This document shows, in pieces, positions 8,738 to 32,408 of a stretch of DNA of 64,000 nucleotides. A program made the translations under genes and the position numbers. Position 1 is the first letter of the stretch; each line of letters starts with the position of its first letter. The notes beneath the pieces were generated by a model. That model was not told the DNA's origin. It saw only the letters and a program-made list of their open reading frames with translations, and ran no database searches. The DNA comes from an uncultured Candidatus Saccharibacteria bacterium (lineage in GTDB: Bacteria; Patescibacteriota; Dojkabacteria; CAZCSM01), in NCBI GenBank assembly GCA_964501355.1, contig CAZCSM010000004.1, positions 3,340-67,339 on the forward strand, read 5' to 3'.

Positions 8738-8767
8738 AAACTTTTATTAGGTTAGAAAGATCATAAA

Positions 8768-8842
8768 TGGTTGCGGGGGACGGATTTGAACCATCGACCT
8801 TCAGGTTATGAGCCTGACGAGCTGCCACTGCTCCACCCCGCG
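8768..8842 (-). tRNA. initiator tRNA-fMet (CAT)
   Basis: The reverse complement, CGCGGGGTGGAGCAG...GGCTCATAACC...GGTTCAAATCC...CCCCGCAACCA, is near-identical in design to E. coli tRNA-fMet, including the C1 mismatch and the CCCCGC 3' acceptor end. Confidence 0.8.
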
Positions 8843-10393: not shown

Positions 10394-12007
10394 ATGGAAG
10401 ATCAGGAACAAGCCCCCATTCAGCCTACGCAACTACCAGTTGCTGCTGCACCAATGAATGAACAACCACTGGAGAAATCTCAAAGCAAATCCGGAATACT
10501 AATAATCCTAGTATTATTGCTTCTACTCCTAGCAGGAATAGCCGGTATTTTTGCATATGCCTTCCTGAGCAACAAGAACATCCCTATCATTTCGGATATT
10601 GTTGAACAGGTAGAAAATGTGGCAGTTAGTGATGAGCAGTTCGCAGAGATGGTTCAGGACCAACTTAGCGAAGCTATTTTTTCCACAATAGAAAAAACGA
10701 GCTCGGTAGCGGCAACCGAAGCAATTGTTGAAATTGATGCATCAGAAGAGTTCTTAAATAATTATGCAGAATCAACAACAAAAGGATTATCCTCATATCG
10801 TTTCGACAGCATGATTGACATGCAGATTACCACAGAGGATGACTATTATCCTGTTGACCTAGGAATACAATTAAGTATGGATGGAGCAGTTCAAGCAAAT
10901 GGTGACACGTTGAAGCTCGAAACAAATATTTATGGAGAGTACGCTGAAGCGGAAACAAACTTGATATTTGACGGGAACATCAAAGCTCTCGGAGAGGTTC
11001 TCTATTTCAAGATTAACGAGTTACCCGACTTTGGAGTCGATCTAGATGAGTTTCTAAATACATGGTACTTCCTGGATATTACGGAAGAAGAAGACTTAGT
11101 CACGGGTCTTAAAGAAAGCCAAGGACTGGAAACAGATGATAGTATTTCAGAGGATGATCTAGAGAAACTTAACCAGCTTATTACAGGAGAAACCATTAAA
11201 GCAAACATCGTTCGATTGCCAGACATGGTGTTGGAAGATGAAGAGAAATTTGGCGAATCAACTGGGACAAGGACAAATTGCTTCGAACTTAATCTAGATG
11301 GAGACGATATTGTCGCCCTGGTCGAGGAAATTGAAAAAATTTGGGAAGTCACTGATGCGGAAAAAACTTCGAGCTCAGATAAGGCTGAAATCAAAAACAC
11401 ATTTCAAGAGGTCAGTATGGGCGCATGTGTAGGACGACAGGATCATCAAGTATACAAATACATGTTCGACGTTGCTTTGGACTCAGAGGGAACAGCATAT
11501 GCAATGAATGGATGGTCCGAAATGTGGGATCACAATAAAGATGTTAATATTGCGGAACCTACCGATGCCATTAACTTCGAAGATGCAATCGGAGATATAC
11601 TTAATACTGTAACACCAGAACCATATGGCCCTGCTGCCCAATTATCGAGCACGAGAAATACAATTCGAAAATCTGATATTAATGCCATGCTTCAAGCAGC
11701 AAGTCTCTACACTATTGATAATGACGGAGAATTCCCCACTATCAATGGTGAGCCGATGAAGACATTAACCATTGAAGATGGTTATGCCTACTGTGAAGAA
11801 TGGGGAGAATGTTTTGCTACAGATCTTGATGAAATCGCAGATGGATTTGGTGCCTACTTAACAGAAATCCCACTGGACCCTCAATATGATATGGACTATC
11901 TGATTGGAGTTGACGATTCAACAAATCCAATGCATATAATAGTAGCAACAAATTATATGGAAGAAGGAGATGATCAGGTCGGTACACTATACTATCTGGA
12001 ATATTAA
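10394..12007 (+). CDS. hypothetical membrane-anchored acidic protein
   Basis: 537 aa. N-terminal TM (ILIILVLLLLLLAGIAGIFAYAFL) followed by a long D/E-rich extracytoplasmic region. No catalytic motif recognised. Confidence 0.4.
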   Translation: MEDQEQAPIQPTQLPVAAAPMNEQPLEKSQSKSGILIILVLLLLLLAGIAGIFAYAFLSNKNIPIISDIVEQVENVAVSDEQFAEMVQDQLSEAIFSTIEKTSSVAATEAIVEIDASEEFLNNYAESTTKGLSSYRFDSMIDMQITTEDDYYPVDLGIQLSMDGAVQANGDTLKLETNIYGEYAEAETNLIFDGNIKALGEVLYFKINELPDFGVDLDEFLNTWYFLDITEEEDLVTGLKESQGLETDDSISEDDLEKLNQLITGETIKANIVRLPDMVLEDEEKFGESTGTRTNCFELNLDGDDIVALVEEIEKIWEVTDAEKTSSSDKAEIKNTFQEVSMGACVGRQDHQVYKYMFDVALDSEGTAYAMNGWSEMWDHNKDVNIAEPTDAINFEDAIGDILNTVTPEPYGPAAQLSSTRNTIRKSDINAMLQAASLYTIDNDGEFPTINGEPMKTLTIEDGYAYCEEWGECFATDLDEIADGFGAYLTEIPLDPQYDMDYLIGVDDSTNPMHIIVATNYMEEGDDQVGTLYYLEY

Positions 12008-12024: not shown

Positions 12025-12053
12025 GAAACACCAGCAGTTGCTGGTGTTTTTTA
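12025..12053 (+). terminator. rho-independent terminator
   Basis: AACACCAGCAGTTGCTGGTGTTTTTT, a GC-rich hairpin plus T-run, lying immediately after the stop of the 537-aa gene. Confidence 0.6.
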
Positions 12054-12297
12054 TTTCTTCTATTTTTCTATAATAATATCAGCCAATAATCCTTCTTAAG
12101 GACAGAAGAGTCATGAATAAAATATCGTTGAGTTTGGGGATTACATTTTAATTTCTCAAATGGTGGGCCTCTTGATGGGGTTTTACAACTTTTAGAACAC
12201 TTCAAAAAGTTCTACGAAGAGACAATTAGCTTTTCACAATACATTCCAGAACTGAAAAAATATACGACCAACAATTCCTTGCTGGCCGCATAGTAAT

Positions 12298-12511
12298 ACC
12301 TAAAAATTCAATTGAATTTACGACTCAATAAGCATTGGCATAACTTCGGCAATAAAAGCCTGTGAATCCTCTTCTGACACACCACATTCATTCATGATTG
12401 GAATACCTAAAAATTCAATTGAATTTACGACTCAATAAGCATTGGCATAACTTCGGCAATAAAAGCCTGTGAATCCTCTTCTGACACACCACATTCATTC
12501 ATGATTGGAAT
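12298..12511. repeat. perfect 107-bp tandem direct duplication (2 copies)
   Basis: 12298..12404 and 12405..12511 are identical. Each copy contains the last ~26 codons plus stop of the 106-aa minus-strand gene, and an AATTCAATTGAATT palindrome. Confidence 0.9.
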
Positions 12512-12745
12512 GCTCGTCATAACAATATCCAACATTGCTGCACTAGAATCTAATTCACCAGCTCTAAATTTAGCCGTCAAAGTAGCTAATTCCTCCACTC
12601 TCCCTGTTCTATACAACTCATGTAGGAACCTCCCAGCCATATCTGGCTGTCCTTGGCAAATTTGAGACAGTGTTTCGACATCAGCTTCAGCTAGAAGTTG
12701 CTGTTCATTTTGGGCAGGGAAAAAAGTAAAATCGGCTTTTCCCAT
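12425..12745 (-). CDS. hypothetical acidic protein
   Basis: 106-aa ORF. Its 3' end lies inside the downstream copy of the 107-bp tandem repeat. Confidence 0.35.
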   Translation of the reverse strand: MGKADFTFFPAQNEQQLLAEADVETLSQICQGQPDMAGRFLHELYRTGRVEELATLTAKFRAGELDSSAAMLDIVMTSIPIMNECGVSEEDSQAFIAEVMPMLIES

Positions 12746-12795
12746 AACGAGAAGCTTGCTTAATTAAAGTGTGAGGATTATATAAGCTTTTGGAG

Positions 12796-12993
12796 CTATT
12801 CGTCAAATCTCGTGTCTATTGCAAAAGGAACAATTTTGATTCGACTATTTATTTTAATTAACACCTGAAATAATCCAACAAGGTTAGAAAAAGCTTCCCG
12901 AGATTCTTCGTATGAATAATCAACTCCATAGTTTGCTTTCATACTTTTCTGATAATCTCGGACGGTTTCATCAGAAATAGGAATGAGGGGCAT
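12796..12993 (-). CDS. hypothetical small protein
   Basis: 65-aa ORF sitting directly upstream of the YgjP-like gene, in the same orientation. Confidence 0.25.
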   Translation of the reverse strand: MPLIPISDETVRDYQKSMKANYGVDYSYEESREAFSNLVGLFQVLIKINSRIKIVPFAIDTRFDE

Positions 12994-13009
12994 TGTCGTA
13001 ATGACTAAA

Positions 13010-13726
13010 CTAAACCATTACTAACTCTAGTCTTTCTTTTAGTTCTTTCCAATTAGGCAGTTGTTTTTCAAGAACTTCGAAGTAATCCTTACTATGATTC
13101 GGGTGAACTAAATGACAAAGTTCATGAACTATCACATAATCAACACATGACTTAGGGGCTTTAATAAGTTCAGGGTTTAATGATATCAGCCCACCATTAG
13201 AACAGCTCCCCCACTTTCTCGAAAGTCTCTTCATTTGCAACCGTGGTTTCTTACCTACTTTTTGCTTCTTTATAAATGATTCCGACAATTCCTCGAAACG
13301 CTCTTGGAAAATTCTTTTTGCATTTCGCTCATACCATTGAGAAAGCAAAAGCTTTACATAATCTTTATTATCAACACTTGTTTCAACTACTAATCGGCCT
13401 CTATAAAGTTTTATGTTGGAATCTTTTGATTTCTTAATTTTCAACATATATTGACGGCCGAGATATTTATGTGTTTCGCCATTAACATATTCTCGTTTCG
13501 GAGTTCTAGGAAGAAACTTTTCGAAATACTGTTGTTGCTTCTTTATCCAGGCTCCTCGTTTTTTCAACCGTTCTTGAATTTGACCCAAACTCGCTGTTAT
13601 GGGGGCTTTAACTTCAACGGTAAGGTCTGGATAAACGTCAATAGACAAAGTCTTTCTGCTTTCTTGTTGCAATGTGAAAGGAATCTCTAGCGAACCATAT
13701 TTTATAATATGACGAGAAAGTTTCAT
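13010..13726 (-). CDS. YgjP-like (DUF45/M48-like) zinc metallohydrolase
   Basis: Carries the motif VIVHELCHLVHPNHSKDYFEVLEKQLPNWKE, an HExxH plus the downstream pattern typical of COG1451. Overlaps the hsdR stop by 4 nt. COG1451 genes are commonly found next to hsdR. Confidence 0.7.
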   Translation of the reverse strand: MKLSRHIIKYGSLEIPFTLQQESRKTLSIDVYPDLTVEVKAPITASLGQIQERLKKRGAWIKKQQQYFEKFLPRTPKREYVNGETHKYLGRQYMLKIKKSKDSNIKLYRGRLVVETSVDNKDYVKLLLSQWYERNAKRIFQERFEELSESFIKKQKVGKKPRLQMKRLSRKWGSCSNGGLISLNPELIKAPKSCVDYVIVHELCHLVHPNHSKDYFEVLEKQLPNWKELKERLELVMV

Positions 13727-16700
13727 TTATATCTATTCTTTGCTACTTCAATTGAAGTATCGATAATCTCATCCATTTCATCAAAGCTTATTCTAAGATT
13801 TAGACTCTTGTTAAGTTCATATAGATATTCATCAATCGCAGTTCGCATTTTATTCTGAACATCAACATTGCTCTGGAAATCAACAATCTTATATTTCTTT
13901 ATAATCTCATCTATCGCTACTCCAATTTCCGCTGATAACTGTTTGTTATCTGTATTCTCAACGGCCTTTCGATTAATAACAGCACCCGCCACACCATAAA
14001 ATGCTTTTGCATTGTCATTACCCTCAAGTATGGAAGGCGTGTCATCACCCTTTCTCTCAAGAACATTGCCAACCATCTCCTTCATTCTTTGCAGATATTC
14101 AGCATCCGTAATACGCTTATCTCGATATTCTTTTATTGTTTCTTCTAACAAGTCAGAAAACTTTTTGTAATATGTCGGGTCTTCGTTCATCTTCTCCGTT
14201 AACGTTTTTTTCAATCGACTTGCCATAGTATCAGCCTGAGCAGCTGTACCCTCAATACCTTCAACCTCTTGTTGAAACTTGTCTTTATCAAAAATGTTTA
14301 CCTGTTCTGTTATTTGAATAACCTCGTCTGTAGTAATATGCGTATCAATAAGCTTCTGAATTTGTGCTTCATATTGTTTGTAATCAATATCATCCGAGTA
14401 TCGCTGCTTTACAGAAACCCTCAATTTCAAGAAGAACCTAGAATCATTTTTGTACATATTAACCTCATCTTCTGGAACTTGTTCCTCAAATTCTAGTGTT
14501 GATAAAGCAAGTTTTAGTGTCCTTGCAAATTTGGATAATGAATCATAAAAATCATTTCTCAATTCATCATCTGCAAGAAGCTGTTCATATTCTTCTAAAT
14601 CCTGTCTGTTCTGAATTACATTAAATATGTCCCAAACTTCTGAATGATACTGTTTCAGATTTGCAATTTCTTCTTTGACGTTTGTCAGCGTTCCGATTAA
14701 ATCCTCTTCATCGAAACTAGAAAGCGAACTATACGTTGTCAAAGCTTTATCTAGTTCCCCCAATATTCCGTAATAATCGATAATGTAACCGTAATCTTTT
14801 CCCGTATGAACACGGTTAACCCTTGCGATGGCCTGAAGCAAGGTGTGTTCTTTCAAACTTCTGGTTATGTAAAGAACAGTATTTCTCGGAGCATCAAAAC
14901 CTGTTAACAACTTATCAACAACAATTATTAACTCTGGCTCATCACTTTTCTTAAAAGCATCAATCAGCTGTCTGTTATACCTTTCTTCATTTCCGTACTT
15001 ATCCATCATGGAATGCCAAAATCTCAAAACAACGTCCTCAGATTCACTAAAAATATCTTCATGACCTTCCCTCGTATCGGGGCCAGAAATAAGGACGTCC
15101 GATTTAATAATCCCGATTCTATCGAAGAACTGTTTATATTTGACGGCAGCAGCTTTTGAAGGAGCTGTTAATTGTGCTTTATATTCTGTTCCTTGCCAAT
15201 TATCTCGGAAATGTTCACTTACATCCCAAGCTATCGCATAGAGCTTTTGTTCAGCTTCGTTTAGTTGGTCTGCTCGACTGAATTTATCTTTTAATACTCC
15301 TGCCTGCTTTTCTGTTAGTGGTTGAGATATTCGGTCAAAATATGTATCAATAGGTTTTCTATTTACATCCTGAACAGCTAAACGGCCTTCATACAGCAAA
15401 GGGACAACCGCTTTATCTTTGACAGCTTGGTCTATGGTGTACTTATCTATAATACCCCCAAACTTCTGTGCTGTATTCTTATCCTTTTTCAGCAAAGGTG
15501 TCCCCGTGAAGCCAATATAGCAAGCATTAGGAAGAACTTTCTGCATTTTTACATTTGCTGTACCGTATTGACTCCTGTGACTTTCATCTACAAGGACAAA
15601 GATTTCTGAAGATTCATTAACAGTAACTTGCCTTTCAAGTCCCGATTCGAACTTGTCGATTACTGTTGTAATGATGTCATATTTTGGCTTTTCGACAAGC
15701 TTCATCAATTCCTTTCCACTGCTAGCCTTTACAACTTCTTTTCCACAATCGTTAAATGTGTCATGTATCTGCTTATCTAAATCAACTCTATCAGTCACAA
15801 CAACTATCTTTGAGTTCGAATAATCCAAAGCAAGAGACTTGGCAAGCATAACCATTGTTAAAGACTTTCCGCTTCCTTGGGTGTGCCAAATTACACCACC
15901 TTTTCTTCTTCCTTGCTCTAAATTCTTAACCTTTCTTAAGGTTTTCTTCACTGCAAAATATTGTTGATATCTTGCAATCTTCTTTGTACCAGCATCGTAA
16001 ACAATGAACTTATAAATCAGTTCTAACAGTCTTTCTGGCCTACATAAGCTATACAAATCTCTATCTTGTTTTGTTACCTTTCGTTCTATTTCTTCGAGTA
16101 AATCAAAGTATTGTCGAACGTATCTAAATCTTTCTGTAAACAACCTGTCTTTTACCTCTTCTTGAATTGGTGTGTTTTTCAGTTTTGAAATAACAGTCTC
16201 ATATTCAGACTTTTGCTCATCGTTTTGAAATTGTTCTTTCCATACAGCCCAGAAGTCTTCTGATGTTCCTGTTGTTGCGTACTTTGAATCATTTCCGCTA
16301 GTTGCAATAAGAAGTTGTGAATACTTAAACAGTTGCCTTATCCCGTCTTCCTTTTGGTTTCGTATGTGCTGAGATACAGCCTGCTCTATCGGTTTATCAA
16401 TGTCGGGACGCTTACATTCAATCACGACAAGAGGGATTCCATTCACATAGAGGACAATGTCAGGTCTGTAATGTTCGTGTAGTCCAGTTCTCTCTACTTC
16501 CAGTTCCTCGGTTACATGATACTCATTATTCTCGGGATTTTCCCAATCAATGTATTGAAGGGTAAAGCTCTTGCGGTCTCCGTCTACATTCTGTTCAAAA
16601 CTTTTCCCCATAACGAGCAAATCAAAGACATTCTCGCTTGCAACCATTAATCCTTCATTCAAAGGTACTTCTCGGAGAGCATCAATTGCACGCTGAATAT

Positions 16701-16923
16701 TTGAATCTGAAAATTCATGCTCTGAGCCCTTGAAAGAAAATCTGTTCAACTTCTTTAACTGTTGCTCCAGAATATCCTGAAGTAACACTTTTCGTGTCGA
16801 ATTGCCTCGAAGCTGAAGAGCTTCTTCTTGGGATAAATATTTGTAACCCATATTCACCAAAAGCTGCAATGCAGGGATTTGAGAAATATGGTCTTCTTTG
16901 AATGATGGTGTCGTTATTTTCAT
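13723..16923 (-). CDS. hsdR: Type I restriction enzyme R subunit
   Basis: 1066 aa. N-terminal PD-(D/E)xK nuclease (IVLYVNGIPLVVIECKR). SF2 helicase Walker A HTQGSGKSLT and DEAH box VLVDESHRSQ. HsdR-type C-terminal region. Confidence 0.9.
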   Translation of the reverse strand: MKITTPSFKEDHISQIPALQLLVNMGYKYLSQEEALQLRGNSTRKVLLQDILEQQLKKLNRFSFKGSEHEFSDSNIQRAIDALREVPLNEGLMVASENVFDLLVMGKSFEQNVDGDRKSFTLQYIDWENPENNEYHVTEELEVERTGLHEHYRPDIVLYVNGIPLVVIECKRPDIDKPIEQAVSQHIRNQKEDGIRQLFKYSQLLIATSGNDSKYATTGTSEDFWAVWKEQFQNDEQKSEYETVISKLKNTPIQEEVKDRLFTERFRYVRQYFDLLEEIERKVTKQDRDLYSLCRPERLLELIYKFIVYDAGTKKIARYQQYFAVKKTLRKVKNLEQGRRKGGVIWHTQGSGKSLTMVMLAKSLALDYSNSKIVVVTDRVDLDKQIHDTFNDCGKEVVKASSGKELMKLVEKPKYDIITTVIDKFESGLERQVTVNESSEIFVLVDESHRSQYGTANVKMQKVLPNACYIGFTGTPLLKKDKNTAQKFGGIIDKYTIDQAVKDKAVVPLLYEGRLAVQDVNRKPIDTYFDRISQPLTEKQAGVLKDKFSRADQLNEAEQKLYAIAWDVSEHFRDNWQGTEYKAQLTAPSKAAAVKYKQFFDRIGIIKSDVLISGPDTREGHEDIFSESEDVVLRFWHSMMDKYGNEERYNRQLIDAFKKSDEPELIIVVDKLLTGFDAPRNTVLYITRSLKEHTLLQAIARVNRVHTGKDYGYIIDYYGILGELDKALTTYSSLSSFDEEDLIGTLTNVKEEIANLKQYHSEVWDIFNVIQNRQDLEEYEQLLADDELRNDFYDSLSKFARTLKLALSTLEFEEQVPEDEVNMYKNDSRFFLKLRVSVKQRYSDDIDYKQYEAQIQKLIDTHITTDEVIQITEQVNIFDKDKFQQEVEGIEGTAAQADTMASRLKKTLTEKMNEDPTYYKKFSDLLEETIKEYRDKRITDAEYLQRMKEMVGNVLERKGDDTPSILEGNDNAKAFYGVAGAVINRKAVENTDNKQLSAEIGVAIDEIIKKYKIVDFQSNVDVQNKMRTAIDEYLYELNKSLNLRISFDEMDEIIDTSIEVAKNRYK

Positions 16924-17519
16924 TCTTTCTTCAGGTTATTTATTTTCTGTTCTAATTCATTAAGCCTACTCTCAAAAGGCTCATACTTTTTTAACTCTTC
17001 ATTTTCAAATCTATCTTTCAGTCGACTAAATTCCTCATTTAATGAAGTTAATTTACAGACATCCTCGTCTTTGGCAGAATTTGTAAAATACCCTCCAACT
17101 GAAATCAAAAAGATAGATAAAAGAGATACAGCAATAAACTTGAAAGTGGCCCTCTTCTCTCTACGACTATTAACCGTATAATCAAGAAGCAACACAAACA
17201 GTGCAAGAAGCCCTCCCAAAACAAGACTTAACCCTAGAACCCTATTGAAATCACAAACACTTTTAATTATCTGAACTTCGATAAGAAGAAATGCAACAAT
17301 CGAAGCAAATATTCCCAAAACAGAGATATAATCAGCCGTTACTGAACTTCGAGTATCTTCAATATTATTTTTTAACTCTTGCTTAAGTTCGTCTAAATCA
17401 TCAAAGGTAACTGCCGTCTGTTCGTTTCCGCTTGTTAGCGGTCGACGAAAAACCTGCTCAAATAAGCTTTCACGCTCAGTCTCTACTTTATTATGAATAT
17501 CTCTATTATTCTTCGGCAT
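16920..17519 (-). CDS. hypothetical membrane protein with C-terminal coiled coil
   Basis: 199 aa with three predicted TM segments plus a coiled coil. Lies between hsdS and hsdR. Confidence 0.35.
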   Translation of the reverse strand: MPKNNRDIHNKVETERESLFEQVFRRPLTSGNEQTAVTFDDLDELKQELKNNIEDTRSSVTADYISVLGIFASIVAFLLIEVQIIKSVCDFNRVLGLSLVLGGLLALFVLLLDYTVNSRREKRATFKFIAVSLLSIFLISVGGYFTNSAKDEDVCKLTSLNEEFSRLKDRFENEELKKYEPFESRLNELEQKINNLKKE

Positions 17520-17772
17520 AATTTTCTACATCTGGCATTAAAGCTTTAACAGCAAAAAAATACACTCTTCCCGTCTTATTCCCTACTACAGCAATCATTG
17601 GAAGGCTGGGACCCCCAATAACAAAAGATGAGGACATCTCTTTCTGAAAAGGACTATTAAAGAAACCGTCCACTAAAGTAAGCCCCTCAGGTTCAGTAAA
17701 CCCTAAGAAGCTCTTCCTTTCGTCAATTGCACCTACCAATTTATCTTTAACTTTCTCAAACTTAACGGTCAT
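17506..17772 (-). CDS. hypothetical protein
   Basis: 88-aa ORF between hsdS and hsdR, overlapping the next gene by 14 nt. Confidence 0.3.
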   Translation of the reverse strand: MTVKFEKVKDKLVGAIDERKSFLGFTEPEGLTLVDGFFNSPFQKEMSSSFVIGGPSLPMIAVVGNKTGRVYFFAVKALMPDVENYAEE

Positions 17773-17793
17773 TCTTTTATTAAAAGAAGTAAT

Positions 17794-19056
17794 TTAACCT
17801 AATTTTACCCTAACCTCACCAGTAAGCAACTTCTGCATCAAACCTTTTTTCTCAAGCTTTAATTTCTCCAGTTCATCCTTCAACAACTCAATCTCCCTAT
17901 CCTGCTCACTCAATAATTCAGCAATTTTCTTTTGTTCTTCAATTGACATTTGCAAAATGGGACAATCGAGAACTTGGTCTTTCCTTAAGTTGGTTTGACT
18001 AACACCATCATCAAACTTCAAATAATATCTGTTGCGATTCAACGTGTAGTATAGATATCTGCTGTCGAGAAAATCATTCACTCTCAGTTTACATATTCGC
18101 TGATTCAGTGCATATTTATTATCCTCCTCAATGTAAAAGCATCGAGCTAAAGCTCGACCATTCGGTATATCGCTCATGACCATCGCAACATCCCCCTTTA
18201 CCAAAGGAAGCAAGTTCTCATTTACGTGCTTTTTGACACGGCCCCCAGTTGAGATAAACTTCGAGTTAACAAGGACATACTTTCCCTCAGAATCTACATA
18301 TGACTCATGAGCCTTTCCATTTTCGAAATCCACCAACAAAAATAACTTCACAACCTCCCAATCCTCAGGAACTTTCCCAATCTTCGTATCAACTAACTTC
18401 TCACTCTTTACAAACTCACTAAACCTCACCTTCCCCGTCAACAAAACCTGCATAAACCCCTTCTTCAATTCCTTTTTCTTCTCAATCAACATCTCAACCA
18501 TCTCAATCGCCTCATCCCAAGCAGAAAGAATCTCAGCAATTTTCTTTTGTTCAGAGATTGGAGGGAAAGGTATTGCAAACCTTCCCAAATCACTATTATT
18601 TATTGAGTTTATGGTTGCACCTAGGTTTCTATGTACTTCTTTTCGATAAATATCTGTATCAAAGACCTGAAACACAAAGTCATTATGTTCACTCCTGTAA
18701 ATTGACATGAATGCACCAAAAGCTTTTCCCTCAACACTCTTGTCAATCAATGCATTTTTACCAATCAGACTCCTACTGCCATTCCTTACACAAATGAGTA
18801 TGTCATTTCCCTTTACTGGATTAACTTTTAAGTTTGATGTATCCACATATACGTTGTCCTTAAATGATAGCTGTCGATTCTGAACATTTGAAGACCTTAA
18901 CACCAACGTCCCCGTATCCCGAACATCTTTAGGAGAGTATGTTAGACCGTTTATCATCTTCCCTATCTCTCTCAAGGTTACCACGTGCCAACTATCAGGA
19001 ATCCAACCTACTTTTGTTTCTTTATAACCTTTTCTATTTTCGTTAACTTTGCTCAT
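17794..19056 (-). CDS. hsdS: Type I restriction-modification specificity subunit
   Basis: Two target-recognition domains separated and followed by the conserved coiled-coil repeats (...LLTGKVRF... and ...LLTGEVRVKLG). Confidence 0.8.
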   Translation of the reverse strand: MSKVNENRKGYKETKVGWIPDSWHVVTLREIGKMINGLTYSPKDVRDTGTLVLRSSNVQNRQLSFKDNVYVDTSNLKVNPVKGNDILICVRNGSRSLIGKNALIDKSVEGKAFGAFMSIYRSEHNDFVFQVFDTDIYRKEVHRNLGATINSINNSDLGRFAIPFPPISEQKKIAEILSAWDEAIEMVEMLIEKKKELKKGFMQVLLTGKVRFSEFVKSEKLVDTKIGKVPEDWEVVKLFLLVDFENGKAHESYVDSEGKYVLVNSKFISTGGRVKKHVNENLLPLVKGDVAMVMSDIPNGRALARCFYIEEDNKYALNQRICKLRVNDFLDSRYLYYTLNRNRYYLKFDDGVSQTNLRKDQVLDCPILQMSIEEQKKIAELLSEQDREIELLKDELEKLKLEKKGLMQKLLTGEVRVKLG

Positions 19057-19187
19057 TAAAACTTATTAAAACTCAAGAATTTTACAATTGTAAAACAATT
19101 TAACATGTAGTATAATCTTAACAGCCTTGCAAAAGGCAACAAAACATTGGCTTAGGGGCTTTGATATACAGAGTCCCTTTTGCATTT

Positions 19188-19940
19188 TTATCCCCCAATC
19201 TCTTTACTCCAACAAATAAAGTCCTTAATCTTTTTCAATTCAAAAACAAAAGAACCCGTCTGGGATAATTCAATGGAAATCCTACGGGATGTTGCAAATA
19301 TTATTGCATTCTTCCCCTTAGTTTTGAGATGTTCAATGGTATCAGCGAAATCGCTATCACCACTCCACAAAACAAAATTTTCTATAGATTCATCCTGAAT
19401 ATTATCAATCAACATATCCGAAGCAAGCTCAACATCAAAATTACACTTCAGATGCTTAATGTGTGTAATTCCCTGTCGATTCAGTTCAAGAAGCCTCTCA
19501 TTCAGAAATTCTATTGTTTCCAAATCAAACTTACCCAACAATGCTTTATCAATATAATCTTTTATAACAAAGGGAGAATCAATTGGAGTTCCCGTCATAT
19601 CAATTGAGAGGTTCATTTCTTTAACAGGTTTCGTTCTTACCACATATCCCCATTTTTCTAAATCTTCAACCGTTTTACGAGAGTCTTCATTCCCATTCAA
19701 CACACCCTGATACACAACAACCTTATTTACATTTGTGTATGACCTTAATAATTGAATCAATCTTTTAAAATCTATATGCCATCCCAATTTCTTCTGCCAA
19801 TGAAAAACATTGGCATAGTCGATGTAGATATTTGTTTTCTTCGTAAAAGATTTTGAAAGGAACTCTATCTTTTTAGGATATTTTTCTGCTAATTTTGCAA
19901 TTCTATCTGTACTAGGATTGAATATTTCTTTTTTTGCCAT
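19188..19940 (-). CDS. NYN-domain (LabA/PIN-like) predicted RNA nuclease
   Basis: NIYIDYANVF...CNFDVELASDM...VLWSGDSDFADTIEHLKTKGKNAIIF matches the NYN pattern (iDg.N ... nvDvala.D ... SgDsDf.pl...l...Gk.v.v). Located between hsdM and hsdS. Confidence 0.5.
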   Translation of the reverse strand: MAKKEIFNPSTDRIAKLAEKYPKKIEFLSKSFTKKTNIYIDYANVFHWQKKLGWHIDFKRLIQLLRSYTNVNKVVVYQGVLNGNEDSRKTVEDLEKWGYVVRTKPVKEMNLSIDMTGTPIDSPFVIKDYIDKALLGKFDLETIEFLNERLLELNRQGITHIKHLKCNFDVELASDMLIDNIQDESIENFVLWSGDSDFADTIEHLKTKGKNAIIFATSRRISIELSQTGSFVFELKKIKDFICWSKEIGG

Positions 19941-20025
19941 TGAACTATAACCAAATAAATGTAAAAATGTCTTACATCAGGGGGAAAAGACTTTGAGGTT
20001 CCGTCCTCAAAGCAACACCCCCATT

Positions 20026-21591
20026 TTATACCAATTCCAATTCCTCTAAATATTTTTTCATCTTCTTTCTCGATTCCTCAACCAGCTCTTCCAATTCTTC
20101 TATCTCACCATGAACAGTCTTAATATCAACAGTCTCTTCTTCTTCAAAAGTATCAACATATCGAGGAATGTTAAGGTTATAATCATTCTCTTTAATTTCT
20201 TTAATGTTTGCTCTATACGAATATTTTTCAATCGTTTCAAAATCTCGGTAAGTTTTTACAATCTTATCAATATCCTCTTTTCTCAATTTATTCTGATTCT
20301 TCCCGTCAGCAAATTCACGACTAGCATCAATAAACAAAACATCATCTGTAGTCTTCGCTTTATTAAAAACAAGAATTGCAGCAGGAATACCCGTCCCGAA
20401 GAACAAGTTGGAAGGAATCCCAATAACAGCTTCAATCAAGTTCTCTTTCAAGAATTGCTCTCGAATCTTACCTTCCGCACTACCTCGAAATAAAACACCA
20501 TGAGGAACAACAACACCGACTTTACCAGTCTCGTTAATCGTTTCAACCATATGAGAAATAAAAGCATAGTCACCTTTACCCGTTGGGGGCATTCCTCGCC
20601 AGAATCGCTTGTATCTGTCGCTCTCCACATCTTCAGCACCCCATTTCTTCAAAGAAAACGGAGGATTAGCAACAACATAATCAAACTTCATCAACTTATC
20701 ACCTTCAAAAAGAAGAGGATTACGAATCGTATCCCCCCACTCAATCCTTGCACTATCCATATCATGCAAGAACATATTCATCTTACACAAAGCCCAAGTG
20801 CTACCATTGCTCTCCTGTCCGTAAAGAGAAAAGTCTCTGCCACCAACCTCATTCGCAACACGAATAAGCAAAGAACCAGAACCGCAAGTAGGGTCACAAA
20901 TGCGACTGCCCTCTTTAGGACTTAACAATTTCGCAATCAAAATGGAAACTTCAGCAGGAGTATAAAACTCACCACCCTTTTTACCAGCATCACTAGCAAA
21001 TCGAGAAATGAGATATTCATAAGTGTTGCCGATTATATCCTCAATACCCACATTAGACGGCCTCAGGTCCATTCTCTCGTCCGCGAAATCCTCAAGTAGA
21101 TGTTTCAATCGTGAGTTCCTATCTTTGGTCTGTCCGAGATTTGATTCTGAATTGAAATCAATGTTTCGAAAGACACCTTCAAGCTTGTCCTTATTTGCAT
21201 CTTCTATTGCATAAAGGGCCTTATTTATCTTCTCTCCAATATCAGTATCCTTTCGATGCTCAAAGAGATAATAAAAGTCTGAGTTTTCAGGAATCTGGAA
21301 ACGCTCATTACGCATCACACGCTCAACACGCTGCCCATCCCCATTATACTTCTCGAGAAGTGTTTCCTTTCTATCCTTCCACACATCACTCAGGTACTTA
21401 ACGAAGAGCATTACAAGTATGTAGTTCTTGTACTCAGAAGGGTCAACAACCCCACGAAAAGTATCACACGCCTTCCACGCAATAGAATTAATCTCTTTTT
21501 GAGAAATATTTGAATCTTTCATCTGTCCTTGCAACAAATTGATTAAATTTTGAAACATTTTTATTATATTACAAAATTCATCCAAAAGCAC
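20026..21591 (-). CDS. hsdM: Type I restriction-modification N6-adenine DNA methyltransferase subunit
   Basis: N-terminal HsdM_N. SAM-binding motif ICDPTCGSGSLL and catalytic motif VVANPPFS (NPPF). Confidence 0.9.
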   Translation of the reverse strand: MLLDEFCNIIKMFQNLINLLQGQMKDSNISQKEINSIAWKACDTFRGVVDPSEYKNYILVMLFVKYLSDVWKDRKETLLEKYNGDGQRVERVMRNERFQIPENSDFYYLFEHRKDTDIGEKINKALYAIEDANKDKLEGVFRNIDFNSESNLGQTKDRNSRLKHLLEDFADERMDLRPSNVGIEDIIGNTYEYLISRFASDAGKKGGEFYTPAEVSILIAKLLSPKEGSRICDPTCGSGSLLIRVANEVGGRDFSLYGQESNGSTWALCKMNMFLHDMDSARIEWGDTIRNPLLFEGDKLMKFDYVVANPPFSLKKWGAEDVESDRYKRFWRGMPPTGKGDYAFISHMVETINETGKVGVVVPHGVLFRGSAEGKIREQFLKENLIEAVIGIPSNLFFGTGIPAAILVFNKAKTTDDVLFIDASREFADGKNQNKLRKEDIDKIVKTYRDFETIEKYSYRANIKEIKENDYNLNIPRYVDTFEEEETVDIKTVHGEIEELEELVEESRKKMKKYLEELELV

Positions 21592-21653
21592 TTGACATTG
21601 TTTTTAGTTATTTGCTATACTTTCAGTGTTCAGTTAAGACTTAAGTATTTATT

Positions 21654-21956
21654 ATGGAAACATTTGGAGAAGTTATAAGAAACTATCGAGTCCAAAAAGA
21701 AATGACCTTACGTGAATTATCGGAAAGAGTTGGCGTATCACCATCGTTCATCTCAATGATGGAGAATAACAAGAATTTGGGTACAGCAAGCGAAGAGACA
21801 ATTTGTAAAATGGCGTCAGTTCTAGGAATCAATGAGCTCAAGCTTCTCAATTTAGCTGAGAAGGTTCCCGAAAAAGAACTGGTTCAGCTAAAGCAAAACG
21901 CTTTAGCATTTTTTAGAGATGATTTACAGAGCCGAAAAAGTAAAATGGTTAGATAA
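21654..21956 (+). CDS. XRE-family helix-turn-helix transcriptional regulator
   Basis: HTH_3-like segment MTLRELSERVGVSPSFISMMENNK. Transcribed divergently from hsdM. Confidence 0.7.
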   Translation: METFGEVIRNYRVQKEMTLRELSERVGVSPSFISMMENNKNLGTASEETICKMASVLGINELKLLNLAEKVPEKELVQLKQNALAFFRDDLQSRKSKMVR

Positions 21957-22644
21957 GAAAGATATTGAATCTACTACTAACAAAATTATTAAAATAACCT
22001 GCCCAAACAGGAAGCCTTTCACCCCCATCAACACGGAACAAGTAATCATATATATTCAAAATCGCTATGACAAAAAGTTACAGCTTTGGACAGGAAAGAT
22101 TTCTGAAGGACTTGATGGAAAATACGAGCTTTCCGAAAATGGATATAGAATCATCACAATCAATGAGAATCTTTATAACAATCCCACAGAATCCCTTGAA
22201 CATATAATAGCCCATGAATTTGGACATTATTGGTATCACACGACATATTTAAAACAGATAATGCAGCAAAAGAACATTCTAGGAGCCGCATTCCCCAGCA
22301 CTAGCAATCGTAAGCTATTTTCAAATTACAGTGATGCAGAATGGCAAGCCGATTACTTCTCAGGGGCATTGAGATTACCAAGTGATGAAGTATATGCCAA
22401 GCATTCTTCAATGTTTGACAATCTGGGGATTCTGGGTAAATTTCAAAACAATAGTGCATTATATAGATACATTGGAGAAGATGCGACACATACAACATTA
22501 GAGCATTGGGCAAAAGAATTTGGTGTAACACCATTCTGCTTATCAGTAAGAATGTTCTATATTGGAATATTAGATGCTGGGGGTAGAAGCTTTATTTCAT
22601 ATGACAGAAAGAGCAGAAAGGTTATTGAGGGTTTCGCATATTAA
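21919..22644 (+). CDS. ImmA/IrrE-family zinc metallopeptidase
   Basis: HEXXH motif IIAHEFGHYWYH. Partner of the upstream XRE regulator, with the gene overlap typical of such pairs. Confidence 0.7.
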   Translation: MIYRAEKVKWLDKKDIESTTNKIIKITCPNRKPFTPINTEQVIIYIQNRYDKKLQLWTGKISEGLDGKYELSENGYRIITINENLYNNPTESLEHIIAHEFGHYWYHTTYLKQIMQQKNILGAAFPSTSNRKLFSNYSDAEWQADYFSGALRLPSDEVYAKHSSMFDNLGILGKFQNNSALYRYIGEDATHTTLEHWAKEFGVTPFCLSVRMFYIGILDAGGRSFISYDRKSRKVIEGFAY

Positions 22645-22765
22645 AAAATTTTAAGACAAATGTTCAGTGAACGCTTAACATATTAAAGCTATAAAACCCC
22701 AGTTCTTGTACAACTGGGGCAAATGATAGAGCAAACAATTAGTTTATTTTAGTAGGACAAACATC

Positions 22766-23941
22766 ATGTTAGACACTATCAGCTTGATTCTATACGGCAA
22801 GCAACTCAAAATCAACCCCGAAGACGACGGTTGCGTTGAATACATTGGGAATGCACTATATAAACCAACACTAGAACAAGCAACCCCCAAAGGATACATT
22901 ATAAATCGTTCCAAAAAGGTTAAGCACCTTAAGAAGAACAAACCCGAATGGGCGTACTCAATCAGAATTGACGAAAGCAATCCAAGAGGACGACAAATCC
23001 GTGTAAACATAGAGTTTTCTATTCCCAAACTTATATTAGGAAGCAGTCTGTATGAGGTTGAGCTGAACGAAGAAAACTACAATAAACTAATCAATAAACT
23101 TTATACCGAACTATCCCCTCATATAATTGACCTATCTAAAAATGACCTTGAAACTTCCGTAATTAAACGAATAGACTTTTGTAGGAATATCATTCTTCCA
23201 GAGAAGGATTCAGAGATTAACTGGATAATAGGGATTCTTGCAACGTATGACTTAAATGCGAGATATGATTTATCGAAGAAAGACTATCAAAACGATGAAA
23301 GAAAAGGTACATCAATAAGCTTTTTCAACAAAAGCCAAGCAATAAAATTTTACAATAAATTAGAAGAGATTCAGAATCTAAAATCCCTCACCCTTACAGA
23401 ACAAACACTCAAAAAAACACTGGATAAAAGAACAACCTCAAGCCAAGTTTTTCGTATAGAAAGAAGTCTACAACGATATCAAACTGTAAATTACGTTCTG
23501 TCAAAATTCATTGATAAGAAAAACAAATTCATACTCAAAGACGTATGGAATGAGGAGATGGCAAAAAAGCTTCTGATAGAACTTGTGGAAGACATTGTGG
23601 ACAAGAACATAAGTTTATTCACATGTTTTCAAAGCCCCGATGATGCAACGCTAATTAATGACTTGCTAAAAGCTTTTTCACTCGGAGACGTTTCAAAGAT
23701 TTACATGATGAAAAAGCTCGTTGACCAAGTTGGAACAACAGGAACAAAGAAATTACTACGAAAGCATATCTCAAGAGGAGCATATGACTATACACTTAGG
23801 AAGCTACTTGCAGCAAGCAAGGTTTTGGAAAAAGAGAAAGCGATATCTATTGGAAGTACATGGAGCAACATACTCGGTCAACTACGAAACAATGAATTTA
23901 TTACTTCCGAAAATTGGCAAGATAAAATACTAGATGATTGA
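22766..23941 (+). CDS. putative rolling-circle replication initiator (Rep_trans-like)
   Basis: 391 aa. KGTSISFFNKSQAIKFYNKLEEI and VFRIERSLQRY resemble the 'G.R.s....r.YdK..E' and 'R.E' blocks of the Rep_trans family. Recalled from memory, not a search. Confidence 0.4.
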   Translation: MLDTISLILYGKQLKINPEDDGCVEYIGNALYKPTLEQATPKGYIINRSKKVKHLKKNKPEWAYSIRIDESNPRGRQIRVNIEFSIPKLILGSSLYEVELNEENYNKLINKLYTELSPHIIDLSKNDLETSVIKRIDFCRNIILPEKDSEINWIIGILATYDLNARYDLSKKDYQNDERKGTSISFFNKSQAIKFYNKLEEIQNLKSLTLTEQTLKKTLDKRTTSSQVFRIERSLQRYQTVNYVLSKFIDKKNKFILKDVWNEEMAKKLLIELVEDIVDKNISLFTCFQSPDDATLINDLLKAFSLGDVSKIYMMKKLVDQVGTTGTKKLLRKHISRGAYDYTLRKLLAASKVLEKEKAISIGSTWSNILGQLRNNEFITSENWQDKILDD

Positions 23942-24116
23942 TAAGCATACAGCAAGAACAACATTAGGAACTGAAGCAACTTACATGTCGGACGAGCAAA
24001 TCGATTCCATTCTGAATATGTTTTACTCTTTCGCTGAAGTTGCTTATGAAGAATATACTCGGAAAAGGTTGGCAAATAATACAATAGTAATTTATAATAA
24101 AAATGGAGACTGTTAA
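23934..24116 (+). CDS. hypothetical small protein
   Basis: 60-aa ORF between the Rep-like gene and the serine recombinase gene. It sits where a small recombination-directionality or accessory protein could be, but there is no direct evidence. Confidence 0.2.
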   Translation: MIDKHTARTTLGTEATYMSDEQIDSILNMFYSFAEVAYEEYTRKRLANNTIVIYNKNGDC

Positions 24117-24169
24117 ATAAGCAAGGGCTGCCAGAACAACTGTTCAGGTTGTTTTGATTTAGGGGGTAT

Positions 24170-25744
24170 TTGCTCTGTCCTTGCGACAGTCTCCAAAATG
24201 CAGATGCCCCCTTAGTCATATTTGGCATTATGGATAAACCAAACGCAATTTTATACACGAGAGTATCCTCAGAACGACAAGTTGAAAACACTAGTCTTGA
24301 TGAGCAGGAAAAATATGGTAAGCAATATTGTGATAAAAAAGGACTCCATCTAGTGAGTGTTTTCCGAGAAGAAGGAGAATCGGCCAAGACGGACGATAGA
24401 ACACAATTAAAAAACGCACTTGCATATTGTTCTTCAAAAAAGAATGATATTAAATTCTTCCTAGTTTATCGGTATGACAGATTTTCCCGTTCTGTAGAAC
24501 ATCACCATAGTCTCAAAGCCGCACTAAGTAATTGGGGGGTTAGAGTAGTCTCGATGACTGAAGAAGTTGATGACTCTCCAGAAGGTAAGTTTCTCGAAAA
24601 CATTCTTGCCGCAGTTGCACAACTAGATAATGACAATCGTTCTGTTAAATCAAGCAATGGAATGAAGGCTATTTTGGAACAAGGACTCTGGCCATTTCCC
24701 CCACCCTACGCATACATAAAAGGCAAAGAAAACATCAACAAAGTAAACCCTCTTATTCCCGACCCAGAAAGATTCGACCTAATCAAAAAGGGATGGCAAA
24801 TGATGCTAACAGGAAGATACAAAAGCGTAGAAATCGTAAAAGAGCTTAATAATCAAGGATGTACGACAAGAACTGGGAAAAAGATGACTGAGGGACTAAT
24901 ATCCAGAGTGTTTAATAATCCGTTCTATGCAGGACAAATAAACTGCCCTAAATTTAATATTAAGGAAATTGAAGGGAAACACATGCCAATGATTAGCATT
25001 GAAGAGTTCTACAGAGTCCAAAAAATTATCAGTGACCAATCAACATCAAAGAAAGTTCCTCATAGCAAATATAATCCCGATTTTCCTCTCAATAAGATAA
25101 TATACTGCACGCACTGCGGAAGAGTTCTAACAGGAAGTTGGGCAAAGAAACATCTGGGACTTGGTTATTATAGATGTCTAAATTCAGAATGTAATAACAG
25201 AGACGGCAATAGTAAGGATGGTATTGAAGAAAGCTTTATAGAATTACTTAGAAGAATTAAGCCAACTGAAAAGCTACAACAACTATTTAGATTGGTGGTA
25301 AAAGACGTTTTTGAAAATAAGTTATCAGAGAAAGTTTCTTCCAAAAAGACAATCGAACAAAATCTACGAAAACTTGAAGAACAGAAGGTAAGAATTGAAG
25401 AACTATTGGAACAAGGTGTTTATGATGTTGATAAATATCGACTGAAGATATCAAAAATCTCACCAGAAATAGAAACTCTGAAGATTAACATATCTGAAAC
25501 AAACATAGAGATTTACGACCTTGAAACCTATGTGAATTACGCACTTCAATTTATTAACAATTTACCAGACTACTGGTTACAACTTCCGCCAGAAGCGAAA
25601 CATAAACTTAATTGGGCGATTTTCCCTAAAGGGTTAAAGATTCAAAATGGGAAAGTTACAACCGACGAATTAGCCAGTATTTATACAGATATTCAGGAGA
25701 TTGCGAAGCATAGGGTTACAAATGGTGGGCCTTCTGAGATTTGA
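24170..25744 (+). CDS. large serine recombinase (resolvase/invertase catalytic domain + recombinase domain + zinc ribbon)
   Basis: N-terminal catalytic domain with AILYTRVSSERQ (catalytic Ser) and FLVYRYDRFSRS. Recombinase domain and a Cys-rich ribbon (CTHCGR...C...C). C-terminal coiled coil. The likely start is the internal MDKPNA. The 3' end overlaps the tRNA by 22 nt. Confidence 0.8.
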   Translation: MLCPCDSLQNADAPLVIFGIMDKPNAILYTRVSSERQVENTSLDEQEKYGKQYCDKKGLHLVSVFREEGESAKTDDRTQLKNALAYCSSKKNDIKFFLVYRYDRFSRSVEHHHSLKAALSNWGVRVVSMTEEVDDSPEGKFLENILAAVAQLDNDNRSVKSSNGMKAILEQGLWPFPPPYAYIKGKENINKVNPLIPDPERFDLIKKGWQMMLTGRYKSVEIVKELNNQGCTTRTGKKMTEGLISRVFNNPFYAGQINCPKFNIKEIEGKHMPMISIEEFYRVQKIISDQSTSKKVPHSKYNPDFPLNKIIYCTHCGRVLTGSWAKKHLGLGYYRCLNSECNNRDGNSKDGIEESFIELLRRIKPTEKLQQLFRLVVKDVFENKLSEKVSSKKTIEQNLRKLEEQKVRIEELLEQGVYDVDKYRLKISKISPEIETLKINISETNIEIYDLETYVNYALQFINNLPDYWLQLPPEAKHKLNWAIFPKGLKIQNGKVTTDELASIYTDIQEIAKHRVTNGGPSEI

Positions 25745-25799
25745 ACTCAGGACCCCTGCTTTATAAGAACAGTGCTCTCACCAACTGAGCTAAAGGCCC
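25723..25799 (-). tRNA. tRNA with anticodon TAT (tRNA-Ile, AUA-reading)
   Basis: The reverse complement is GGGCCTTTAGCTCAGTTGGTGAGAGCACTGTTCTTATAAAGCAGGGGTCCTGAGTTCAAATCTCAGAAGGCCCACCA. It has a 7-bp acceptor stem, a canonical D-arm and T-arm, the anticodon loop CTTATAA with U33 and A37, and an encoded CCA. Confidence 0.6.
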
Positions 25800-28334: not shown

Positions 28335-28340
28335 ATTATA

Positions 28341-28790
28341 TTAACTTACTTTTTCCATCACTCTCGCAAGCCAAATCTTTAACCAATCATCTGACTTTTC
28401 TAAATCTATTTTAGTTGAAACACCTAAATTATCAAGGATCCTTTTCGGAATTTGATAACCATAATATTTAACGGGGACACCAGAGTCATCATCGTCGTTA
28501 TCGTCATTTGCAGCCATCGCAGCATCATCTGCTGCAGCTGCAGCGGCGGCACCAGTTTTCTGAACTTCACCACGTTCTCTTTCTAAATCTTCCTTATATT
28601 TCTCTATCTGACCCAAAACAGCAGCTTCTGGAGTTTGACGGATTTTAATTTCTCCATAAACATCTTCTTCCGTCTTCTCCATAGACCCCAACTGCTCAGC
28701 CAAGAGCTCAGGATCTAAATCTGGAGATATGACATCCTCAGATTCGATTTTCTTTTTTTGTAAAGTTTCCTCCGTGGGCTTTGCTATCAT
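28341..28790 (-). CDS. hypothetical acidic protein
   Basis: 149 aa with a poly-Ala/Asp low-complexity centre. Lies immediately downstream of the VirB4-like gene. Confidence 0.3.
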   Translation of the reverse strand: MIAKPTEETLQKKKIESEDVISPDLDPELLAEQLGSMEKTEEDVYGEIKIRQTPEAAVLGQIEKYKEDLERERGEVQKTGAAAAAAADDAAMAANDDNDDDDSGVPVKYYGYQIPKRILDNLGVSTKIDLEKSDDWLKIWLARVMEKVS

Positions 28791-28858
28791 GGTTTATACG
28801 TTTAATATCACACAAAAAAATTGTACCACATTAGAAAAATTTTAACTACATGTTAAAA

Positions 28859-31448: not shown

Positions 31449-31457
31449 TGGCAGTTA

Positions 31458-31673: not shown

Positions 31674-31739
31674 CCCCTCTAAGGATTAAAATAAGTTTTT
31701 ATCAAACAAACAACTGCAAGAAAGAAATAATTTCATGAT

Positions 31740-32348: not shown

Positions 32349-32408
32349 TATCTTTTGCTATAAAATACCATCTGAAAATATTATACCACAACTATTACAT
32401 TATAATGC

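Follow-up and report, generated by a model that had tools for sequence, protein, structure and literature searches.

A predicted integrative element at a tRNA-Ile(UAU) gene and a widespread family of serine recombinases whose genes read into tRNA genes

The 64,000-nt stretch of contig CAZCSM010000004.1 analysed here (hereafter the window, with positions counted from its first letter) most probably harbours an integrative, plasmid-like element of 13.6 kb at positions 12171-25732, which entered the 3' strand of the acceptor stem of a tRNA-Ile(UAU) gene through the action of a large serine recombinase (LSR); we put the probability of this reading at about 85%. The recombinase belongs to a large family of wide phylogenetic distribution, the genes of which nearly always run in antisense direction into tRNA genes. 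In this family, the attachment site attP is located, as judged by the comparison of integrated and un-integrated homologues, within the 3' end of the LSR gene itself.

Insertion at the tRNA-Ile gene

The target is a minus-strand tRNA-Ile(tat) gene with the anticodon UAU (25723-25799), which is intact according to ARAGORN and Rfam (tRNA, 71 bits). The open reading frame (ORF) of the recombinase ends with the stop codon TGA at 25742-25744 and overlaps the tRNA by 22 nt, in agreement with the first-pass annotation of this DNA. This annotation had also reported the exact recurrence of a 14-mer from the tRNA end at 12157, and in fact CAAATGGTGGGCCT is found in exactly two copies in the window (starts 12157 and 25719), even if one mismatch is tolerated; two or more matches were obtained in 0 of 100 dinucleotide shuffles. 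When 60 nt of the tRNA end served as query, the longest match was 9 nt in the downstream flank and 11 nt on the reverse strand. The right copy is composed of four bases past the tRNA, the antisense CCA, the discriminator and all but one of the seven acceptor-stem bases, and the left copy reads as CAAA, TGG (i.e., CCA), T (discriminator) and GGGCCT (six of seven acceptor-stem bases). A rho-independent terminator, placed to the left of this repeat already in the earlier annotation, is real as well (hairpin at 12025-12050, left of the element). The sites that define the insertion are as follows:

12157..12170, no strand: predicted attL core; exact 14-mer that formed the 3' end of the host tRNA before its displacement, with host DNA on its left
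25719..25732, no strand: predicted attR core; copy of the tRNA 3' end carried by the element, which completes the tRNA
25723..25799, minus strand: host tRNA-Ile(UAU), the integration target; 77/77 nt identical to the tRNA of the empty site described below

The crossover presumably took place at or near the right edge of the attR core, which delimits an element of 13,562 bp. By this exchange, the element brings its own last ~10 nt of the tRNA, together with 4 nt beyond, and the tRNA consequently stays intact after insertion. Relative to the tRNA 3' end, the repeat of the window covers -4..+9 and that of its relatives in the family -5..+8; this nearly identical position supports the boundary at the 14-mer, as it had been proposed from the repeat. 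The junctions reconstructed on this basis are GGGTTACAAATGGTGGGCCTCTTGATGGGGTTTTAC for attP and TTTAATTTCTCAAATGGTGGGCCTTCTGAGATTTGAAC for attB. The ends of Logan contigs (window positions 12062, 25815 and ~24394) were also considered as clues to the boundaries and were discarded as assembly fragmentation only.

An empty site in a related genome, which the first-pass annotation had named as a check, is present on a 2.3-kb Logan contig (SRR29243437; L088). This contig carries the only homologue found of the left-flank gene (P0130, 67% identical), followed by a terminator, ~240 nt, a tRNA-Ile(tat) gene identical in 77/77 positions and the right-flank sequence of the window, of which the first ~100 nt right of the tRNA are covered before the contig stops short of the neighbouring ATPase gene. 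If the window is joined at ..12170 and 25733.., the resulting sequence can be aligned with L088 in collinear order: the left flank 'TTTTAATTTCT' has its homologue in the DNA that follows the tRNA immediately downstream in the empty site, and 'TTTTAATTT' stands directly before the tRNA end in both sequences. It follows that the left 14-mer is preceded by host DNA and that the inserted segment is the 13,562-bp unit. The composition of the element points in the same direction, since its tetranucleotide distance to the host profile (0.140) is about twice that of any of 16 host windows of the same size (0.061-0.081). Of the compositional break that had been suggested as a further check, only this k-mer signal was seen; the GC content showed no break at the element.

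With the ATG at 24230, which is a likelier start than the TTG at 24170 chosen originally, the LSR comprises 504 amino acids and is identical to database protein P0001. It features the domains Resolvase (PF00239, 99 bits), Recombinase (PF07508) and Zn_ribbon_recom (PF13408), matches PHROG 95 'integrase' as well as PDB entry 3guv (E=7e-15), and shares only 25-27% identity with any LSR of an isolate phage or plasmid. Y9, R11, V12 and S13 are invariant in both of our alignments (A1 and A2), and S14 is invariant in A2 and nearly so in A1; of the zinc-ribbon cysteines, C293, C296 and C316 are invariant and C321 is nearly invariant in A1. In the AlphaFold2 (AF2) model, the core is confident and long coiled-coil helices are found within residues 347-423 (347-394 and 400-423, predicted local distance difference test (pLDDT) 74-94). 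Such an enzyme would be expected to catalyse attP x attB recombination at a 2-bp crossover. The recombinase class determined by hidden Markov models (HMMs), the empty site and the k-mer break all favour the integrated element at the tRNA that had initially been put forward.

Position of attP in the recombinase family

A database search yielded 161 LSR homologues, whose C-termini fall into two classes, namely antisense-tRNA-type peptides (G[IFL]EP.., G.RTR.., ..LYPLSYG) and amphipathic tails, many of which feature the motif (S/N)WN(Q/R)(I/L)xxxL. Many of 120 database homologues end in peptides of the G[IFL]EP or GxRTR type. The scan of GTDB species representatives provided 80 LSR loci from Patescibacteria, Myxococcota, Acidobacteriota, Verrucomicrobiota, Actinomycetota, Planctomycetota, Melainabacteria and others. 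In 66 of these 80 loci, the LSR ORF runs antisense into a tRNA gene and terminates there, as it does in the window and in L006, a 1.1-Mb genome contig with the same arrangement at a tRNA-Arg gene; four further loci have tRNA-like peptide ends and two are truncated at contig ends. The GTDB targets are mostly tRNA-Glu genes, but also genes for tRNA-Ala, -Leu, -Arg, -Met, -Lys, -Asn and -Ser. In IMG/VR (L089-L092), family LSRs are located at the very ends of predicted proviruses of 40-53 kb and read into tRNAs, and two of the contigs (L092, 14.5 kb; L090, 39.6 kb) carry family LSRs with free-type tails. Together with the small elements, these proviruses indicate that one integrase family serves both phages and small plasmid-like elements. 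A peculiarity was observed at one locus (L078), which has two left-end candidates: a 21-nt copy of the tRNA-Glu end reaching the T-arm (188-208) and, 180 nt further in, a 10-nt copy followed by a WNT tail (367-376). This double left end hints that the same tRNA received another insertion, either an older or a tandem one.

The location of attP emerged from the second class of C-termini. The tails of un-integrated homologues alone were used to build an HMM, which was run in six frames over 68 tRNA-integrated loci with a cut-off of 15 bits. Fragments of at least 15 bits were found in 11 loci, every one of them upstream and on the LSR strand, and 0 fragments appeared in the three control sets (opposite strand upstream and both strands downstream). 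In 11 of 12 loci, the tail fragment follows directly after an exact 7-14-nt copy of the tRNA 3' end and keeps the codon phase of the LSR. The tail-bearing loci, which represent at least eight lineages, have the repeat at -5..+8 and unit lengths of 4.5-10 kb. Moreover, the far-end frame is open for 26-48 codons in independent lineages, with control frames mostly closing within 0-12 codons. Within one cluster of 90% identity, the proteins share a common core and diverge exactly after '..PSGT', residues for which the CCA and the acceptor stem provide the codons. These loci establish, at the level of sequence comparison, an attP within the 3' end of the LSR gene, so that integration would transfer the final ~25-40 codons to the element's far end and provide the gene with a few tRNA-encoded codons instead. 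By the same comparison, the predicted crossover of the family is placed in the 3' strand of the acceptor stem, and a mimic of the tRNA end forms part of the element. The first-pass annotation had thus captured the overlap of recombinase and tRNA and missed that the LSR gene spans the attachment site throughout the family.

The window itself contains a corresponding open frame behind the left repeat:

12171..12296, plus strand: predicted 3' part of the LSR gene, displaced by the integration, with 41 codons and TAG in the LSR phase; own start codon absent

The LSR phase is open for 41 codons (12171-12293; 44 codons when counted from within the repeat) and ends with TAG TAA, and the other phases close after 11 and 4 codons. 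The integrated LSR of 504 amino acids ends with ...NGGPSEI, and the circle would give a protein of 541 amino acids ending with ...NGGP-LDGVLQLLEHFKKFYEE.... Probably, the LSR gene of the window is therefore split in the same way as in the family. The (S/N)WN(Q/R)(I/L) motif is absent from the window tail and likewise from the nearest relatives P0008-P0010, and a resemblance to the tail of P0045 is visual only. A further homologue, P0127, is an LSR at least 90% identical to P0003 with a 75-residue, non-tRNA tail after '..PSGTE'. This long tail was tried as the native tail of the P0003 clade and rejected, as it is absent from L006, L073, L008, L009 and L010; it may represent an off-target insertion or a different native tail.

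The half-sites were also compared on the DNA level. Right of the crossover, the host arm B' holds the T-loop TTCGAAT (TTTGAAC in the window); its counterpart in the element arm P' is the similar word TTGGAAC (TTTACAAC in the window), which is displaced outwards by ~5 bp. Consistently, the pooled B'/P' identity peaks at offsets +4/+5 (0.37-0.40) and +10 (0.40) over a background of ~0.22. Rutherford and colleagues reportedly described in 2013 that the distance of the zinc-ribbon motif of LSRs from the centre is ~5 bp greater in attP than in attB. The spacing between P' and B' would fit this accepted half-site model, a match that is suggestive only.

Gene content and genomic context

Gene calls were checked with Pfam, PADLOC and PHROGs. 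The gene list of the first-pass annotation held up in this analysis, apart from two ORFs between hsdR and hsdS that it had omitted and the type of the replication initiator. From left to right, the element carries the following features in addition to those given above (R-M, restriction-modification):

12261..12292, minus strand: terminator-like hairpin, closes the minus-strand cargo operon and overlaps the last ~11 codons of the LSR tail ORF
12290..12503, no strand: tandem duplication, 2 x 107 nt, 98% identical, in perfect register; copy 2 includes the 3' end of orf106
12425..12745, minus strand: orf106, no family match
12796..12993, minus strand: orf65, function not assigned
13010..13726, minus strand: YgjP-like metallopeptidase (PF01863, 190 bits), commonly linked to type I R-M
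13723..16923, minus strand: HsdR, type I restriction subunit (Pfam; PADLOC REase_I, 759 bits)
16920..17519, minus strand: orf199 (199 amino acids), weak match to phrog_5763; hydrophobic stretches seen by eye in the sequence
17506..17772, minus strand: orf88 (88 amino acids), between hsdR and hsdS
17794..19056, minus strand: HsdS, specificity subunit (Pfam; PADLOC)
19188..19940, minus strand: NYN-domain nuclease (PF01936; PADLOC NYN)
20026..21591, minus strand: HsdM, methyltransferase subunit (Pfam; PADLOC)
21592..21621, plus strand: promoter-like site TTGACA-18-TATACT, TG-extended, a consensus match only; heads the mobility operon
21654..21956, plus strand: XRE-type helix-turn-helix regulator (PF01381; PHROG repressors)
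21919..22644, plus strand: ImmA/IrrE-type M78 metalloprotease with HEFGH motif (PF06114; phrog_87)
22766..23941, plus strand: predicted rolling-circle-type replication initiator (Rep) with Phage_CRI/G2P N-terminal domain (PF05144, 31.6 bits, cut-off 21.7)
23934..24116, plus strand: orf60, directly upstream of the LSR, no family match
24230..25744, plus strand: LSR, integrated-state form of 504 amino acids; host tRNA DNA supplies its final 3 codons and its stop

The type I R-M system is complete, with HsdR, HsdM and HsdS present and intact. Genes of such systems recur at most 10 kb upstream of family LSRs in L016, L017, L021, L028, L039 and L064, i.e., in unrelated phyla, and in L017 a YgjP-like homologue is found together with HsdR upstream of the LSR; R-M systems hence seem to be frequent cargo of these tRNA-inserted elements. 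In the opposite direction, the promoter-like site is followed by five co-oriented genes encoding XRE, ImmA, Rep, orf60 and the LSR. The initiator had been annotated as Rep_trans-like, a family (PF02486) which remained unmatched even at E<=10; instead, the Phage_CRI/G2P domain was found. Homologues of orf60 occupy the same position in L006 (9686-9847), L073 (9703-9849) and L057 (4152-4241), as detected by tblastn, and share the motif ..AR..LG....(M/L)(S/N)D(E/D)(E/D).(Q/D)......(F/M).(F/M/L)AE(V/I)... We regard orf60 as a candidate directionality factor or regulator. Neither capsid, tail, terminase or lysis genes nor relaxase, type IV secretion system (T4SS) or transfer genes were detected between the repeats with Pfam and PHROGs, and a megablast comparison of the element with plasmids gave no match. 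At the left end, copy 1 of the tandem duplication constitutes a duplicated gene end adjoining the displaced LSR tail.

The window is chromosomal, as it encodes PolA, FtsH, SmpB, GroEL, FtsA, RNase J and PNPase. The best named relatives of its GroEL belong to Ca. Dojkabacteria (65-68%), and the host is probably a bacterium of the Patescibacteria/candidate phyla radiation (CPR). On the host side, directly past the tRNA, the region 25878-41722 starts with a DUF8128/VirB4-TraG-like ATPase; two proteins with a T4SS_pilin domain (38315-39088 and 40817-41722), an SMC-like ATPase accompanied by a phosphoesterase and a protein with a SpoIID domain lie further along. The region resembles a T4SS-like or surface cluster of the CPR type, among whose genes SmpB and GroEL are interspersed. 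To the left of the element, a XerC/D-like tyrosine recombinase (9346-10281) lies beside a DivIC-like protein and two tRNA-Met genes. It is probably a chromosomal Xer protein outside the element, since the intervening gene (10394-12007) is host DNA in L088. tRNA-Ile with the anticodon UAU is uncommon in bacteria; one of the two tRNA-'Met'(CAT) genes at 8659-8842, 17 kb from the tRNA-Ile gene, could be a lysidine-type tRNA-Ile2. A Fic-domain protein (539-1597) and a 709-residue protein with a weak Baseplate_J match (44301-46430) are situated amid housekeeping genes.

Known systems, possible mechanism and alternatives

Phage-type LSRs such as those of phiC31, Bxb1, A118, TP901-1 and phiFC1 resemble the LSR of the window in their architecture, which consists of an N-terminal Resolvase domain, a Recombinase domain and a zinc ribbon with coiled-coil insert, as well as in the short att core and the position of the int gene beside attP at one end of the element. 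In contrast to the tRNA target and the attP within the gene described here, their targets are protein-coding or intergenic and their genes do not span attP. Integration into tRNA genes is familiar from tyrosine recombinases: the target of myxophage Mx8 includes a tRNA gene region, SSV-type elements integrate into tRNA genes, and AICEs, the integrative and conjugative elements of actinomycetes, rely on a tyrosine recombinase and an FtsK-like Tra transfer protein.

For serine integrases, the literature offered only two partial precedents of a described tRNA-targeting family. In one study, 14 of 297 S-Int islands were located at tRNA or tmRNA genes, a targeting which was stated to be 'not reported previously' and for which 'experimental proof will be required' (Mageeney et al., 2020, PMC7192596). 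The other concerns 'Group 1' proviruses of Thermotogota, which carry serine recombinases beside tRNA-Glu, -Phe or -Pro (bioRxiv 10.1101/2020.11.07.368316). Both resemble the window in a serine-recombinase element adjoining a tRNA, and tRNA-Glu dominates also in the family described here; they differ in that the accessible portions of the two reports describe adjacency only and mention neither att mapping nor a split integrase gene. A gene architecture with attP inside is known from myxophage Mx8, where integration converts intP to intX with a new 3' end and an altered enzyme activity (PMC6070905), and from the archaeal integrases of SSV1 and SSV2, in which att lies within int and integration interrupts the gene (PMC5861418). 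The Mx8 integrase is a tyrosine recombinase, and its likeness to the LSR of the window is consequently one of analogy and not of homology; the SSV enzymes are archaeal viral tyrosine recombinases whose genes are cut into two large pieces rather than trimmed at the C-terminus. The pSAM2-type AICEs (~10-17 kb) combine integration into tRNA genes with conjugative transfer (PMC2440964) and, as far as covered by the portion of that report at hand, are similar in size and site, whereas the element of the window features an LSR, lacks a transfer gene and resides in a CPR host. In the incompletely covered literature, no report of a serine integrase gene spanning attP was found, which is absence of evidence only. 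Integrase genes that span attP are accordingly known for tyrosine recombinases, and what appears to be new here is a serine-integrase family with tRNA targets whose genes straddle attP.

Regarding the life cycle of the element, the XRE/ImmA pair gives a first hint. In ImmR/ImmA systems, e.g., of ICEBs1 and phages, an XRE repressor and an M78 metalloprotease are encoded by adjacent, co-oriented genes heading the mobility operon, and the protease inactivates the repressor on a signal. The pair in the window shows the same arrangement, with similarity at the level of Pfam domains only. By analogy, it could hold the XRE-ImmA-Rep-orf60-LSR operon off until a signal is received and the protease inactivates the repressor. 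The LSR, perhaps together with orf60, would then excise the element by attL x attR recombination at the dinucleotide at the right edge of the 14-mer, and the G2P-type Rep might copy the circle. The restored full-length LSR could recognise the T-loop/acceptor region of tRNA-Ile and re-insert this circle there. The type I R-M system, the YgjP-like protein and the NYN nuclease would represent cargo for host defence and stabilisation of the element. A more far-reaching idea, which we consider doubtful, is that the swap of the C-terminus acts as a state sensor, so that only the circle encodes the integration-competent, full-length LSR with its amphipathic tail and the tail-less, integrated form differs from it in activity or directionality. 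If this were true, the tail-less LSR ending in tRNA-derived residues would be, for example, excision-competent with orf60 or silent, and directionality would partly be hard-wired in the DNA topology and not be conferred wholly by a separate directionality factor. The family, present in at least eight phylum-level lineages among the GTDB loci, would then provide a serine-recombinase counterpart of Mx8 IntP/IntX.

Several observations weigh against an integrative element with an LSR gene split at attP. The empty site stems from a different species (flank protein 67% identical) and not from an isogenic strain; two metagenome scans with attB and the tRNA gave 0 matches, no excised form is on record, and a genome-contig scan with the flank ATPase revealed neither a same-species empty site nor a circle. 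The exact reconstituted LSR of 541 amino acids is absent from the protein collection, and the dyad symmetry of the reconstructed attP and attB reaches at most 11/22 positions, which is not convincing. On the family level, the tail-bearing loci are not all independent, with six of them from Gastranaerophilales, and the far-end tail was not located in the closest clade (L006, L073 and L009), where short repeats and open frames are ambiguous. Regarding the window tail, open frames of at least 41 codons occur by chance at 5-8% of off-frame positions. This tail scores ~0 bits against the tail HMM, six-frame scans with an HMM of 17 tails found nothing, and tblastn gave no significant match in L006. 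It adds +2 bits to the full-length profile, a value equalled by 15/200 shuffled and 25/200 random peptides, AF2 predicts two helices of low confidence (pLDDT 34-63), and the last ~11 codons overlap the minus-strand terminator (12261-12292). In view of these non-significant tests, we do not claim homology of the window tail to the tails of the family.

Among the alternatives, a substantial possibility, if short of an even chance, is that the element is integrated as described but the overlap of LSR gene and attP is incidental and the tail has no regulatory role. The 'WNQ(I/L)' motif would then reflect a constraint on the DNA level, namely TTGGAAC as a T-loop mimic bound by the zinc-ribbon domain. 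In fact, the conserved core of the tails corresponds to the DNA word TGGAA(C/T), which is similar to the T-loop TTCGAA and is shifted outwards by ~5 bp compared with the T-loop in B'; as this word could account for the conserved 'WN' at the DNA level, we take the explanation as a serious rival to any regulatory role. It further agrees with the window tail, which lacks conservation at the protein level, and with the integrated-state LSR, which retains all catalytic and DNA-binding domains. What it does not account for is the amphipathic pattern that the tails retain over ~20 residues past the motif despite differing DNA, and the far-end frames of independent lineages, which in most of them stay open longer than the control frames. 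It is unlikely that the element was integrated once and is now an immobile remnant, domesticated as a defence island. The failure of the metagenome and collection scans to recover an excised form or a same-species empty site, the 107-nt tandem duplication at the left end and the absence of transfer genes inside the element are in line with such a fate. Identical repeats, an intact LSR ORF with all invariant residues, the still open 41-codon tail, intact Rep, XRE, ImmA and orf60 and a k-mer signature that is still foreign speak against it.

A prophage or conjugative element, possibly larger and taking in the T4SS-like ATPase or the tyrosine recombinase at 9346-10281, is very improbable, even though the VirB4/TraG-like ATPase begins only 79 nt past the tRNA, T4SS-pilin genes follow further on and family LSRs occur at the ends of predicted proviruses. 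Genes for capsid, tail, terminase, relaxase and T4SS are absent between the repeats, the left-flank gene and the first ~100 nt right of the tRNA are found in L088 and hence are host DNA, and the ATPase is situated beyond the intact tRNA amid housekeeping genes such as SmpB and GroEL. Finally, the 14-mer could be a chance repeat, with a recombinase beside the tRNA by accident, given that LSRs need only a 2-bp crossover and that 12-15-nt repeats occur in control comparisons at other loci. This view is almost certainly wrong, as it is contradicted by the empty site, the k-mer break and the family-wide tRNA overlap, and the repeat, matched twice in none of the 100 shuffles, sits in the family-typical position.

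The integrated element in the tRNA-Ile gene, and the recombinase family behind it, are relevant in several respects. Contrary to the earlier view that LSRs do not target tRNA genes, a large family across multiple phyla is seen here in which tRNA 3' ends are the usual site. For the insertion of large DNA into genomes, serine integrases are the principal tools. Since the att geometry of this family can be read from the sequence, many candidate attB/attP pairs on universally conserved targets might become available. An integrase gene spanning attP also implies different forms of the enzyme in the free and the integrated element, and directionality encoded by topology thereby becomes a testable question. 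For the probable CPR host, the element is among few delimited mobile elements, and it illustrates how a complete type I R-M system may move in reduced CPR genomes.

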